Assembly: GCA_045545475.1 (NCBI GenBank)
Contig: JAZQAZ010000017.1
Coordinates: forward strand, 11,973-75,972
Reading direction: 5' to 3'
DNA: 64,000 nucleotides
Source of the DNA: Clostridia bacterium
Lineage (GTDB): Bacteria > Bacillota > Clostridia > CAKSNL01 > HGM11501
Part shown: positions 13,195 to 55,918 of the stretch, in pieces
Layout of the letters: every line of letters begins with the position of its first letter
Numbering within the stretch: position 1 is the first letter of the stretch
The notes under the pieces: model-generated
Database searches by the model: none
What the model was told of the DNA's origin: nothing
The model's input: the letters and a program-made list of their open reading frames with translations, nothing else
Translations under genes and position numbers: made by a program

Positions 13195-13200
13195 GCAAAA

Positions 13201-13407
13201 AATTTCAACAAAGAAATTTTTTGCGGGAATCGTCACGAGCGTTGAAGCGGAGTGACGATACAAAGGAAAAACCGAAGAGGTTTTTCTCGTGAGAATTTCA
13301 ACAAAGAAATTTTTTGCGGGAATCGTCACGAGCGTTGAAGCGGAGTGACGATAAAAAGGAAAAACCGAAGAGGTTTTTCTCGTGAAATTTCAACAAAGAA
13401 ATTTTTT
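13201..13407 (+). repeat. Tandem structured repeat, 93/92-bp period, two full units plus a third 22-bp terminal repeat
   Basis: AATTTCAACAAAGAAATTTTTT at 13201, 13294, 13386; near-identical intervening hairpin units. Confidence 0.95.
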
Positions 13408-27767: not shown

Positions 27768-28115
27768 GTCGGTCCATGTGGGCCACTGTTTTTGTGTGCG
27801 TTTTTGGGGCACATGAAGACAGACTACCGATGAAGCAGGAGGTTGCGGCAATGCCGGTTTTCCTGCCGAGGGAGTCCGATTCAGAGAAACCGGGCGAAAG
27901 CGCAAATGCTTTGCACAGAGTGGCATAAGTAAGAAGGGAAAGTGTGGAAACCTTCTGAAAGTGCGGATCCCGGCAAGCATGCCGGGAATTATAGTTGGGG
28001 TGGATGAAACACCCGGGCGAGTGTAAGGCGAGTTCTTCTGAGTCTCCTTGGGGTATATAATAATGAAGTAATGCCCTTAACCCAAAGCAAATAAAATAAG
28101 GAGGCGATTTTACTC
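27768..28115 (+). promoter_or_regulatory. Long structured rpsJ (S10) leader
   Basis: ~350 nt GC-richer 5' UTR with several hairpins and CGATGAAGCAGGAGGTTGC, resembling Firmicute S10 leaders. Confidence 0.65.
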
Positions 28116-52753: not shown

Positions 52754-53560
52754 ATGCGATATGAGATTTTCTCTGACGGCAGTGCATCTTTGCTTAAACT
52801 GAATTCAATGGGAGTAAGCGGAGATGTGAATGTTACGAAATTCGGGCCTGCACGAAGAGATTTATATATAATTCATTATGTAACCAAAGGGAAAGGATAC
52901 TATAACGGTAATGAGGTAAACGAGGGAGAAGGCTTTCTTATATATCCCGGTCAAGATGAGGTATACTATCCTTCAAAAAGTAATCCGTGGGAGTTTTTAT
53001 GGATTATATCATCAGACGATGCCATGAAAGAAATCTTTGAAAGATATAATGCAGATTCAGATACATTGATTTTTAAGTATGATACCGTACCTGTGGCTAA
53101 AAAAATCGGAAGTATGATTATGTCTGAAAACGGAAAAATTTCAGACTCCCTTAAAATGCTGGAGATGTTTTTGCATATATTAAACAGTCATACATATACA
53201 AAGCTTTCATCGCAGCGCGTGCCCGACAGTGAAATATATCTGAATTTTTGCACAGGCTTTATTGAAACCAATATGCATAAGAAAATTACGGTGGAGGAGC
53301 TGTCACGTCTGGCAGGAATAAGCCAGCCTTATCTGCACAAAATTTTCAGGAAAAGATTTAATATGTCAACAAAAGAGTATATAACATGGTATAAAATGAA
53401 GAAAGCCAAAGAATTACTGATAGAAACAAGTATGTCGATAACCGAAATTGCAAATTCTGTCGGTTACAGTGATGTTCTCGCGTTTTCCAAGGCTTTTTCT
53501 TCAAAGGAAAATATGTCTCCGCAAAAATATCGGCAGCTTATGAAAAAAGACGGAGTTTGA
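52754..53560 (+). CDS. AraC-family regulator
   Basis: FGP..R..Y.IHYV..GKG, C-terminal HTH; divergent from the GRE gene. Confidence 0.9.
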   Translation: MRYEIFSDGSASLLKLNSMGVSGDVNVTKFGPARRDLYIIHYVTKGKGYYNGNEVNEGEGFLIYPGQDEVYYPSKSNPWEFLWIISSDDAMKEIFERYNADSDTLIFKYDTVPVAKKIGSMIMSENGKISDSLKMLEMFLHILNSHTYTKLSSQRVPDSEIYLNFCTGFIETNMHKKITVEELSRLAGISQPYLHKIFRKRFNMSTKEYITWYKMKKAKELLIETSMSITEIANSVGYSDVLAFSKAFSSKENMSPQKYRQLMKKDGV

Positions 53561-53577
53561 GCATAAGAATCTATTGT

Positions 53578-53612
53578 AAAAGGCAGAAACGATTTAATCG
53601 TTTCTGCCTTTT
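53578..53612. terminator. Bidirectional terminator
   Basis: AAAAGGCAGAAACGATT/AATCGTTTCTGCCTTTT. Confidence 0.85.
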
Positions 53613-53650
53613 GGATTTCTGTTTTTAATTGTTTAAAAGTGCATCCCGAA

Positions 53651-53916
53651 AAAATTTTCTCTATTGAAAATTTTAGCGATTCTTTTATAGAATGTGTATC
53701 TCGAAAAAATCCTGTTCGGATTTTTCATTGTATTGCCTACACCCTTGAACGCATTTTCGGCAATGTCGCTCAAAATTTTTCTTTGTTGAAAAAGTCAACA
53801 ATTCTTTTATAGTGTGAGCGTGCCGAAAAAATGCTATTCGCATTTTTCATTGTATTTCCTACACCCTTGAACGGGTTTCGGAAATTTCCGATAAAATTTT
53901 CTCTATTGAAAATTTT
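53651..53916 (-). repeat. Tandem structured repeat, 121-bp period, two diverged units plus three terminal repeats
   Basis: AAAATTTTCTCTATTGAAAATTTT-like repeat at 53651, 53772, 53893; homologous to the 13201-13407 repeat. Confidence 0.9.
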
Positions 53917-54943
53917 ATCTCTGTACTCTTCCTGATCCGTCGCCACCCATTAAGGTTTCAACTTCCTTAACGGTTACTCTGTTAAAGTCACCGATGATGG
54001 TGTGCTTTAAGCAGCTTGCTGCAACTGCAAATTCAAGAGCCTTCTTCATATCGTCATAGTTAAGAAGTCCGTAAATCAAGCCTGCACCGAAGGAGTCGCC
54101 GCCGCCAACTCTGTCAACGATATCCTTGATTTCATACTTCTTGGAAACGTAAAATTCCTTGCCGTCGCAGATACAAGCAGACCAGTCATTGTGGTTTGCA
54201 CTCTTGCTTTCACGAAGTGTGATTGCAATCTTTTCTGCGTTGGGATACATTTTAAGTACTTCCTTTGCAAGAACTTCGTACTTAGCTGTGTCAAGGTGAC
54301 CGCCTGTAACGTCGCTTCCTGCTTCGATGCCGAGTGACTTCTGGCAGTCTTCTTCGTTTGCGATGATTACGTCAACGTACTTAACAAGCTCTCTCATAAT
54401 TTCCTTTGCTTCCTTACCGTACTTCCAGAGGTTCTTTCTGTAGTTAAGGTCGCAGGAAACCTTTAAGCCCATTTCCTTTGCTGCCTTACAAGCTGCAAGA
54501 GAAACATCAGCTGCACTCTGGGAAAGAGCGGGGGTGATACCTGTGATGTGGAACCACTCTGCACCGTCGAAAATCTTCTTAAAGTCGAAAAGATCGGGTG
54601 TTGCAAGAGCGATGGAAGAATAGGCTCTGTCATAAATTACCTTGGAAGGTCTCTGGTTAGAGCCTGTTTCAAGATAGTATGTACCGAGTCTGCCTTCGGA
54701 ATATACGATATCGGAAATATCAACGCCGAAGCCGCGAAGCTGGCAGGTAAGTGCATATGTAATGTCATGCTTGGGAAGAGCGGTAACGTACTTTGCTTCC
54801 ATACCGAAGTTTGCAAGAGAAACTGCAACGTTTGCTTCACCGCCGCCGAAGGTTGCCTCAAGCATGGGGGACTGCATGAATCTTTCAAGACCGGGAGACT
54901 TAAGTCTTAACATAATTTCGCCGAGTGTAACAACTTTTTTCAT
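53915..54943 (-). CDS. kdgK: 2-keto-3-deoxygluconate kinase (PfkB)
   Basis: [32 protein letters not shown]. Confidence 0.9.
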
Positions 54944-54961: not shown

Positions 54962-55918
54962 TTATTTCTGGAGAAGGTGAAGTGCAAAGCCTGCAATTTC
55001 ATCCTTAAAGAATATAACCTTCATAGAACCGTCTGCATTGAAAAGTGCGGAAGATTCGTCAAATTCAATGCCCTGAGCCTTTAAGTGGTAAACTGCTCTG
55101 TCAACAGAGTTTGTCTTGATTGCGATGTGACCGTTTACGCCTTTGCCTTTGCCCTTCATGATTTCGATAATCTTTCCCGCCCAGAAGCTGGAATTGCCTT
55201 CGGAAGTTTCGATACCGCCGAAAGCCTTTGCAAACTTAACTGCAACGCAGGAAGCTTCTGCAGCATCAGCTGTATTAACGCCGAGGTGACCGATTTCGAA
55301 GCCGAGCATAATGGAAACAGCCTTTTTGGTAAGCTCTGTAATCTTATCCCATTCGCCGTTTTCGATGTATTCTTCCTTAACCATAAAGCTTCCGCCGCAG
55401 GCAAGGATTTTCTTGTTTGTGATATAGGTGGTTAAATTGTCAAGTCCGATTCCGCCTGTGGGAATGAACTTAAGGTTTCCGTAGGGAGCAGATAAAGCCT
55501 TTATCTTATCAATACCGCCGCTCTGCTCTGCAGGGAAGAACTTAACAACCTTTAAGCCAAGCTCCAAAGCCTGCTCAATTTCTGTGGGAGAAGTACATCC
55601 GGGTGTGGGGATGATGTCATTTTCTAAACACCAGGAAACAACCTTGGGATTGAAGCCGGGGCTTACGATAAATTTAGCGCCTGCGTTTTTAGCACGCTGG
55701 GCCTGTTCTATGGTAAGAACTGTTCCTGCACCAACTAACATTTCGGGGAAAGCTTCGGATACTCTCTTTATAGCTTCCTCGGCGGCCTCTGTTCTGAAGG
55801 TAATTTCGGCAATGGGAAGACCGCCGTCAATTAAAGCCTTCGCAAGGGGAACAGCCTTTTCAACGTCATTGATTTTTATAACCGGTACGATACCGATATC
55901 GGATATTTTCTTTAACAT
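54962..55918 (-). CDS. eda: KDPG/KHG aldolase with ~110-aa C-terminal extension
   Basis: EITFRT, GAGTVL, VSPG, KFFPA, PTGGI. Confidence 0.9.
   Translation of the reverse strand: MLKKISDIGIVPVIKINDVEKAVPLAKALIDGGLPIAEITFRTEAAEEAIKRVSEAFPEMLVGAGTVLTIEQAQRAKNAGAKFIVSPGFNPKVVSWCLENDIIPTPGCTSPTEIEQALELGLKVVKFFPAEQSGGIDKIKALSAPYGNLKFIPTGGIGLDNLTTYITNKKILACGGSFMVKEEYIENGEWDKITELTKKAVSIMLGFEIGHLGVNTADAAEASCVAVKFAKAFGGIETSEGNSSFWAGKIIEIMKGKGKGVNGHIAIKTNSVDRAVYHLKAQGIEFDESSALFNADGSMKVIFFKDEIAGFALHLLQK

Follow-up and report, generated by a model that had tools for sequence, protein, structure and literature searches.

A lineage-restricted modular repeat with three hairpins per unit, often located behind stop codons and probably folding in mRNA tails, in a genus of Clostridia

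Introduction

Directly after the stop codon of a sugar-kinase gene, the contig JAZQAZ010000017.1 of a Clostridia bacterium carries an array of two head-to-tail copies of a small non-coding repeat with three hairpins per copy. All coordinates without a genome prefix refer to the window, i.e. the whole 64,000-nt stretch of this contig that was analysed. The array occupies 53651-53919 on the minus strand and has the architecture R-unit-R-unit-R, where R designates the hairpin that bounds each unit. The first-pass annotation of this DNA, made from the sequence alone, had described this order together with the outer stems of the other two hairpins, A and B, and both were found as described. It had implied a feature of two loci; instead, the array belongs to a dispersed repeat family restricted to one lineage. 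On balance, we read the stretch as an array of a modular, lineage-restricted non-coding interspersed repeat that probably folds in an mRNA tail and acts at the RNA level. The R-A-B family is apparently an uncatalogued relative of the BOX, REP and SPRITE repeats. It is placed among the small interspersed structured repeats because anatomy, spread, turnover and lineage restriction match that kind, and it is set apart from the known families by the lack of end modules, of target duplication (at one clean site) and of a link to RAYT as well as by its direct arrays and A+T-rich stems. To our knowledge, small structured repeats (REP/BIME, BOX, RUP, SPRITE, Correia) have been studied in a few model bacteria and are almost unexplored in uncultured gut Clostridia. 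A literature search of main texts found no description of the R-A-B family.

Anatomy of the array behind the kinase gene

Each unit is built from the same parts. The R hairpin has a stem of variable sequence and the loop AAYAAA closed by a C-G pair. Hairpin A consists of an outer stem, a purine-rich internal loop, an inner stem of 2-4 bp and the hexaloop GUUSAA. Hairpin B combines an A-tract, two to three G/C pairs, the loop GAAYA and a T-tract, and a variable tail closes the unit. Units are arranged head to tail with R copies common to neighbours. Their G+C content ranges from 28 to 54%, and the R stems are A+T-rich.

At the kinase locus, where all parts lie on the minus strand, R1 (53890-53919; GATAAAATTTTC-AATAGA-GAAAATTTTATC) has a 12-bp stem with an RNA folding energy of -9.8 kcal/mol, and the kinase gene ends within its 5' arm, which contains the final codon plus the TAA stop. 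It is followed by hairpin A1 (53854-53885) with the outer stem ATTTCC/GGAAAT, a 4x4 internal loop, the inner stem ACCC/GGGT and the hexaloop GTTCAA, which folds with -13.1 kcal/mol in sense and -10.2 kcal/mol in antisense orientation. Hairpin B1 (53827-53847; AAAAATGC-GAATA-GCATTTTT; -6.3 kcal/mol) is terminator-like but weak, and a 32-nt tail (53794-53825) completes the first unit. The internal R2 (53776-53793; TTTTTC-AACAAA-GAAAAA) has a 6-bp stem and -2.4 kcal/mol. In the second unit, hairpin A2 (53732-53764; -8.6 kcal/mol) has the outer stem ATTGCC/GGCAAT and a weakened inner stem (ATGC vs GGGT), followed by hairpin B2 (53705-53725; AAAAATCC-GAACA-GGATTTTT) and a 30-nt tail (53674-53703). 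Tails vary from locus to locus. The closing R3 (53651-53674; 9-bp stem, loop AATAGA) precedes the first bases of a truncated further unit.

The array sits between the kinase stop codon and a strong two-way terminator with a 17-bp stem (53578-53612, both strands; -21.6 kcal/mol) that starts 38 nt beyond R3 and is common to the kinase side and the convergent AraC-family gene (52754-53560, plus strand). A scan of 53400-54100 for intrinsic terminators, defined as a stem with at least three G-C pairs and a T-run directly after it, called the hairpin at 53577-53613 alone and none of R, A and B.

Two details of the earlier description had to be corrected. The R copies had been given an exact 121-bp spacing; their start-to-start distances are 122 and 120 nt. 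The linker had been given as ACAATG in one unit and ACAAAG in the other; both kinase units have ACAATG, and ACAAAG stems from the unit behind efp, the second array of the window. The two kinase units are 75% identical. Among the 29 pairs of the structural model, three changed on both sides with pairing kept, one each in A (U-A to G-C), B (G-C to C-G) and the outer stem of R. Two pairs with a single-sided change still pair as G.U, and four single-sided changes break pairs in unit 2. Three of the broken pairs fall into the outer stem of R2, a stem that every internal R copy has in shortened form; the remaining one, an inner pair of A2, is discussed below. The observation that the units differ in sequence but keep pairing is confirmed, with an inner pair of A2 and the lost outer stem of the internal R as exceptions. 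The two compensatory pairs in A and B at this locus are thin evidence by themselves, and it is the family-wide counts that carry weight.

Covariation and conserved loops

With 35 units aligned by MAFFT, the RNAalifold prediction contains all three hairpins (R, A and B), and 19 of the 29 pairs change on both sides. Pairing was found in 92.4% of the cells compared to 73.3% after shuffling and 39-57% with slid partners, and the covariation score was 0.441 versus 0.139. For 60 distinct units, among them those of the divergent congener G011, 25 of the 29 pairs show changes on both sides and 95.5% of the cells pair (68.3% shuffled, 40-56% slid); this alignment was fitted to the covariance model and is, therefore, biased towards pairing. 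Related genomes do not contribute independent copies, so that all family counts overstate the support. The combination of paired substitutions and conserved loops, proposed earlier from two loci, is real and a property of the family. Uncompensated substitutions, which had been named as a point to look for, do exist (the inner helix of A2 and a chimeric unit in G002, see below) within a family in which nearly all cells pair.

The loops behave differently from the stems. Eleven of the 12 pairs of R vary, and the loop-closing C-G is the sole one that does not. Of 61 units, 58 have AACAAA or AATAAA as R loop, and the loop of hairpin A is mostly GTTCAA or GTTGAA. Hairpin B carries GAACA, GAATA, AAACAA and similar loops, which are A-rich on the element strand in 61 of 61 units; the T-rich complement was found in none of them. 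In G011, the R stems have replaced TTTC/GAAA by AGTC/GACT or ATGC/GCAT and kept the same loop. Variable stems around constant loops are the hallmark of single-stranded hairpins that are recognized by way of their loops.

Free stems with fixed loops are the reverse of what recombinase and operator sites show, namely conserved arms. This bears on the idea that R is the core site of a site-specific recombinase of the dif, attC or lox type and that the units are cassettes which leave an array as circles and reinsert at a different R. Its attraction lies in the inverted arms of R around a 6-nt asymmetric spacer, in the direct orientation of the R copies that always bound the units, in arrays that mix unit types, such as the efp array of G003 with two different types side by side (L141), and in solo R sites like the one directly after the SRP RNA and before dnaX. 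The pattern is reversed, however, with variable arms and a constant 6-nt loop. Furthermore, all R copies within an array bear the locus-specific 3' arm, which argues for tandem duplication and against cassette entry. We regard a recombinase site as very improbable. Integron or dif-type sites and type III antitoxin arrays were set aside on anatomy. A CRISPR array was rejected since the stretches between R copies are 75% identical and homologous across loci, unlike unrelated spacers.

Spread and lineage restriction

The simple R pattern has 20 matches in the source genome (G000) versus none for the reversed pattern; it is present in six of the 11 other genomes of the genus and yields 0-1 matches elsewhere. 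With this pattern, arrays were located at a dozen places of the 2.74-Mb, 50-contig source genome. A covariance model built from 35 simple units revealed further loci, one of them on the secA stop codon. About twenty loci with R-A-B architecture are known in this genome. Over the full set, the model matches 28 times in G000, 21 in G002, 26 in G003, 19 in G004, 15 in G007, 13 in G009, 11 in G010 and 14 in G011. One match was obtained in G006 and none in G005, G008 and G001, the last of which is a genome of 59% completeness. Seven of the 11 other congeners, hence, carry 11-26 units each and an eighth carries one. The distribution within the genus is patchy, and no units were detected with the model in 29 genomes of other genera and families of the class.

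The host genes are unrelated. They comprise efp, pta, sigA, secA, a ROK-family gene, an SBP_bac_5 gene, a cell-wall hydrolase gene and the sugar kinase gene; further arrays lie in the SRP RNA/dnaX interval and in the interval between a parB-like gene and parA. Rfam searched with gathering cut-offs over the whole window found an S10-Clostridia leader elsewhere and nothing in the arrays. A permissive Rfam search of both arrays of the window gave sub-threshold matches only, the best one inside an array reaching 16.4 bits with a cut-off of 70. No match to a 286-nt stretch of the kinase array was obtained in phage and plasmid collections in distant mode. An exact 18-mer scan with one genome per species hit at least 117 stretches, mostly single chance matches in unrelated A+T-rich genomes; the full architecture was present at 11 loci among the matches listed, all in records titled as metagenome-assembled genomes of uncultured Clostridia. 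The sequencing runs that hold the kinase stretch are animal gut and faecal metagenomes.

Constraint and turnover between species

Same-type units at orthologous loci were compared with the fourfold-degenerate sites in the last 150 codons of the host gene. Units differ less than these sites at efp (0.07 vs 0.20), pta (0.11 vs 0.33), the ROK-gene locus (0.07-0.20 vs 0.31-0.43), the cell-wall-hydrolase locus (0.02 vs 0.47) and sigA (0.21 vs 0.36). At the kinase locus, there is no such gap (0.20 vs 0.22, G000-G004). Where species carry differing unit types, the divergence amounts to 0.3-0.45. In ten orthologous groups, 39 of 580 stem columns vary compared to 49 of 375 unpaired columns, and the stem of hairpin B is the most constant with two varying columns in 160. 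Divergence slower than at fourfold sites, constancy of the stems and covariation together speak against neutral duplication, as the first-pass annotation had argued.

Misassembly, which it had also disfavoured, is excluded by orthologous arrays in other genomes and by independent metagenome contigs that span the kinase array. The idea of chance compensation in a neutral tandem duplication at this locus, or in an artefact of assembly, could appeal to the fact that A and B at the kinase locus contain just two clear compensatory pairs. It would have to account for the same architecture at about twenty loci of the source genome and in eight other genomes as well as for family-wide covariation, independent contigs and units conserved beyond fourfold sites, and its probability is negligible.

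The unit content of arrays changes from species to species by gain, loss and exchange. At the kinase locus, G000 has two units, G002 three, G003 one and G004 one plus a decayed R. At efp (1-2 units) and pta, the unit type differs by species. A contig of the metatranscriptome run X19 joins 53812 back to 53698 with seven other letters between, which reflects another order or number of units in another strain. In addition, a module of about 100 nt with its own C-AACAGA-G hairpin and two more hairpins is nested in the apical region of hairpin A, precisely at the junction GAAGC | GTTGAAGCGG. One G003 array (L171 771-1204) has this module in its second unit but not in its first, and the module was also found at G000:C34:10362 and 10584 and at G000:C9:38500.

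The R hairpin and the stop codon

Under a simple rule for open reading frames (ORFs), a same-strand ORF ends 0-26 nt before the R core in 41 of 66 arrays from seven genomes. The gap between stop codon and R core is at most 9 nt in 39 arrays, and in 25 the stop codon lies inside the stem. Of the 50 distinct first-R hairpins whose stems reach 9 bp or more, 35 have 12 or 13 pairs; the base is closed by G-C in 35 and followed by G in 38. Between the R core and the closing pair, each locus has complementary bases of its own.

That the 5' arm of the first R is ancestral is shown by element-free congeners, in which the kinase and sigA genes have identical ends. The kinase gene ends with ...CAGAGATAA in G005, G008 and G011, which are element-free at this locus, so that GATAA in the 5' arm of the kinase R is the gene end in these congeners, too. 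The sigA gene ends with ...GCATAA in G007, G008 and G009 and with ...GCGTAA in G011. At secA, G007 offers a clean empty site, AAATAA|GAAAGGA, in which the ribosome-binding site of the next gene comes directly after AAATAA. The filled sites pair the secA gene end as 5' arm with a matching 3' arm: GGAAAAATAA with TTATTTTTCC in G000, GGATAAATAA with TTATTTATCC in G004 and AACAAATAA with TTATTTGTT in G003. The last three SecA codons vary by species (MEK, MDK, GNK, MNK; L218 940-1200 in G000:C40, L221, L223, L224), and R follows suit in its non-coding 3' arm, which couples the SecA C-terminus to the hairpin. A comparison of the filled sites with the empty one, i.e. at one clean site, revealed no target-site duplication, only an inverted copy of the left flank.

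A position at the stop codon is less odd than it seems because terminators normally start there. Of the 2116 genes called in the source genome, 185 show a perfect palindrome of at least 10 bp (10-23 bp) starting between -12 and +3 of the stop codon, compared to none at a control position of -100 and nine at +150. Most of these palindromes are ordinary two-way terminators with an A-tract that starts at the stop codon TAA and a T-tract that runs out in TTA. R, in other words, takes the place of a terminator.

It is conceivable, though rather unlikely, that R builds itself on its target by copying the last 5-10 host bases inverted around the C-AAYAAA-G loop. The product would be a stem of 12-13 bp, closed by G-C and overlapping the stop codon; a factor specific for the loop would recognize R, and units would pile up behind it. 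If true, this would be a mode of insertion with an inverted instead of a direct target copy, which the passages on repeat elements in PMC3184786 and PMC3049150 do not describe, and the C-terminal codons of secA, sigA and pta would be coupled to a non-coding element. More generally, a hairpin laid over the stop codons of housekeeping genes means that the repeat would constrain, or be constrained by, protein C-termini.

Orientation, strand and transcription

The orientation of 66 arrays relative to their neighbours was determined with gene calls scored by codon usage and Pfam checks at doubtful loci. Forty of them follow a same-strand gene (28 in the arrangement ++, 9 in +- and 3 in +?), and another seven precede a gene on their own strand, in a divergent or open arrangement. 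A bias with respect to replication was not observed for the 13 arrays of G000, seven of which are located on the G-rich strand and six on the other. Array orientation leans to transcription, not to replication. In 57 of 60 units, RNA of the element strand, i.e. the one with the AAYAAA loop, is more stably folded than its complement, with means of -35.5 vs -31.4 kcal/mol (difference 4.1), largely because of the purine-rich internal loops and the loop sequences.

Contigs from RNA libraries of two studies partly cover the kinase array at a depth of 2-9 (X17 record 9, 53743-53932; X18 record 18, 53631-53780); as such libraries can hold DNA, they prove neither strand nor ends nor expression and lend weak support. 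Among the contigs listed, none extends at least 31 letters on both sides of the kinase stop codon.

Alternatively, arrays might be non-coding RNA genes of their own or protein-binding decoys that display A-rich loops (AACAAA, GAACA), with the antisense arrays as independent transcription units. Loops conserved on stems of free sequence and the better folding of the sense strand are in line with this proposal, and so is a leader of about 40 nt before R, TTGACTTGTTTTTGAACTATATTG...TTTAGCA, shared by antisense arrays (C48:34919, C31:76039, L154, L165; L127 3880-3920, L216). By contrast, most arrays begin on a stop codon, where a promoter would not fit, species differ freely in the number and type of units they have at a given locus, and Rfam has no match. 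Promoter scans were weak: before the antisense arrays, the leader gave a match of 9/12, with matches at or near shuffled expectation, and the same expectation was not clearly surpassed by the kinase-locus units, including TTGAAA-N16-18-TA.A.T pairs. We consider independent RNA genes or decoys improbable. On the plus strand opposite the kinase gene, each unit has one promoter-like pair (53664-53693 and 53786-53813) composed of TTGAAA in R, 16-18 nt and TAGAAT or TATAGT in the tail (10/12 matches).

RNA-level action or a DNA-level element

The most likely mode of action, by analogy with better-studied repeats, is at the RNA level. An array opens with an R that overlaps or closely follows the stop codon of an ordinary gene; the 5' arm of this R is the gene end and the 3' arm its inverted copy. 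Transcription would include the array in the tail of the upstream mRNA or in a spacer between cistrons, and the hairpins would fold in that RNA. There, they may constitute a barrier against 3'-exonucleases, a processing signal or a weak attenuator. In analogy to what has been shown with REP of E. coli and with stem-loops of one Clostridia operon, they could modulate the stability or the translation termination of the flanking genes. Arrays grow locally through recombination or slippage between R copies.

A number of observations weigh against this interpretation, among them the bias of the model-fitted alignment and the dependence of copies in related genomes mentioned above. First, pairing at the kinase locus is imperfect: The inner pair of hairpin A in unit 2 went from C-G to G.G without compensation, and the first unit of the G002 kinase array is a chimera, ATTTCC..GGCAAT, with one mismatch in A. 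The 286-nt kinase stretch folds well beyond chance with z = -7.4 (200 shuffles), its complement folds equally well (z = -7.2), and a difference between the strands shows up only in the family-wide comparison. Second, 16 of the 66 arrays are antisense between two co-directional genes, and when orthologous loci are grouped by eye, roughly 21 sense groups compare to seven antisense groups (some 28 in total). At parB-parA, the orientation of the array flips between species. The genome-wide check of orientation that had been suggested earlier, hence, speaks for an RNA-level role by its majority and against it by the antisense share. Third, across the family only 33 of 1695 cells are G.U compared to 22 of 1695 that are A.C. 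Such rarity of G.U is unusual for a selected RNA structure and expected from homogenisation of the arms at the DNA level; as a strand test, the asymmetry between G.U and A.C is too weak to decide. Fourth, compensation alone is no proof of selection because template switching within inverted repeats makes arms match without it, as described in passages of PMC7202029 and PMC8604942. Finally, a parasitic element needs no host function at all, a view that Croucher et al. take of pneumococcal repeats in the relevant part of PMC3049150.

These points lead to the main rival, a selfish mobile element that acts at the DNA level and has no RNA role. Its hairpins would be substrates of a mobilising enzyme as single-stranded DNA (ssDNA) or cruciform, its loops would be kept since only recognisable copies spread, and its arms would be matched by template switching, which extends R into the host flank. 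The wobble counts, with nearly all pairs being Watson-Crick, and the R 3' arm as inverted copy of an ancestral flank fit well. The module nested at an exact point of hairpin A, the patchy distribution within the genus and the occurrence of both orientations agree with it, too. On the other hand, elements that move as ssDNA show a replication-strand bias which is missing here. Template switching is reported in passages of PMC8604942 to invert spacers, and no loop inversion was seen in the uniformly A-rich B loops. A target-site duplication is absent at the filled/empty secA pair. The Y1 transposase family PF01797 does not track the element: As RAYT-type partner it was rejected because it is absent from G007 with 15 units and present in G006 with one and G008 with none. 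Old orthologous copies are more conserved than fourfold sites, which indicates constraint after insertion. We give a purely DNA-level element roughly one chance in a few, clearly behind action in RNA. The earlier claim of selection on a folded single strand, accordingly, stands as far as constraint and covariation are concerned; the folded strand may be RNA or DNA. Ends of the type known from miniature inverted-repeat transposable elements were considered as well. A unit taken from loop to loop opens with the 3' arm of one R and closes with the 5' arm of the following one. These arms form an inverted pair of 6-9 bp but no usual terminal repeat because they differ between loci and the hairpin is shared by two units.

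Comparison with known structured repeats

The closest architectural parallel is BOX from Streptococcus pneumoniae (boxA-boxB(n)-boxC). According to the relevant passages of PMC3049150 and PMC3184786, BOX is modular, non-coding and composed of independently folding stem-loops; its internal tandem modules vary in number at one locus, comparable to 1-3 units at the kinase and 1-2 at the efp locus, and it is confined to one species group. Co-transcription with neighbouring genes, listed there as a common trait, would be shared by the R-A-B arrays if they are parts of mRNAs. The same passages ascribe to BOX distinct end modules, terminal inverted repeats and target-site duplications, whereas here the same R bounds every unit and the first R is built on the last host codons; this comparison is one of architecture only.

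SPRITE, as portrayed in the respective section of PMC3049150, is AT-rich and terminator-like, has A-tract and T-tract ends, is found near the 3' ends of coding sequences and has neither a transposase match (here, the Y1 family was searched) nor a demonstrable target duplication, all of which resembles the present repeat. Compared by description, hairpin B shares the A-run/T-run design (A5/T6) but its stem has 8 bp, and R is devoid of a T-tract. SPRITE, however, is a single 18-bp duplex with a uridine-rich tract and enriched between convergent genes (PMC3049150, same section). In contrast, the R-A-B repeat has three hairpins per unit, forms direct arrays, lies between co-directional same-strand genes in 28 of 66 cases, and its R, A and B fail the terminator scan. 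BOX, RUP and SPRITE are judged in PMC3049150 to be likely to affect co-transcribed genes.

REP/BIME sequences of enterobacteria and pseudomonads are extragenic palindromes that occur singly or in mosaic clusters, are transcribed in mRNA tails and stabilize the upstream mRNA (passages of PMC3184786). Position and clustering are alike. Following the same passages, REP is G+C-rich, alternates in orientation and is tied to a RAYT (Y1 transposase) gene, in contrast to the A+T-rich stems and direct arrays found here and to a PF01797 that does not follow the element. Within the Clostridia, experiments on the cip-cel operon of Ruminiclostridium cellulolyticum demonstrated that intergenic stem-loops stabilize processed transcripts and direct endonuclease cleavage (PMC10311766, in part). 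The R-A-B arrays are likewise intergenic hairpins in Clostridia, and a corresponding mechanism may apply to them. The cip-cel stem-loops are, as far as the passages in PMC10311766 go, single and locus-specific and do not form a dispersed family with conserved loops.

If the arrays tune mRNA decay or termination, they would constitute a lineage-wide layer of gene control. Liang, Rudd and Deutscher reportedly found in 2015 that REP close to stop codons lowers translation; should this hold, a hairpin within a few bases of the stop has a known consequence. Free stems with held loops provide a defined target in the search for a factor that reads the loop. Since the arrays vary in copy number between close species, they will break short-read assemblies, and they can mimic riboswitch-like covariation.

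Neighbouring genes, the second array and further loci

The gene in front of the kinase array (53915-54943, minus strand) is a 342-codon ORF with the stop codon TAA at 53915-53917. It encodes a PfkB-family sugar kinase similar to 2-keto-3-deoxygluconate (KDG) kinase and matches the NCBIfam KDG/KDGal kinase models, yet below their curated cut-offs. The ORF of the eda aldolase (54962-55918) adjoins it.

The second array of the window (13195-13403, plus strand) starts 1 nt past the stop codon of efp, whose identity was confirmed by Pfam. It comprises three R copies and two nearly identical units with a period of 93 nt, which score 105.3 and 81 bits with the covariance model; the next gene begins 27 nt past the last R. 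In congeners without the element, the last efp codons form a hairpin of 6-8 bp. The counterpart in G004 is a 12-bp hairpin on the stop codon that is alike in design (G...C, then GG) and differs in its loop.

Solo or short R elements adjoin genes for stable RNAs (L119 2769-3036 and 3054; L132, L156, L214). One is located next to the tmRNA gene in G000; at another of these loci, the element lies between the tmRNA gene and an ORF that we take to be smpB. The array in the parB-like/parA interval of G000 (C34:10096-10772, L122; also L128 and L172) carries the nested module and is flanked by two palindromes TGTTTCACGTGAAACA, which are presumably parS-like. In G003, the parB-parA segment is inverted relative to G000 and G002. 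The array L215 (G000:C9:38378-38579, minus strand) is flanked by the 12-nt direct repeat AAAAGCGACTTT, the second copy of which is the 5' arm of the terminator after this array; the repeat could be a target duplication or a partial duplication of the terminator. Finally, the S10-Clostridia ribosomal protein leader of the window (RF03136; 40.6 bits) is located at 27822-27899 on the plus strand.

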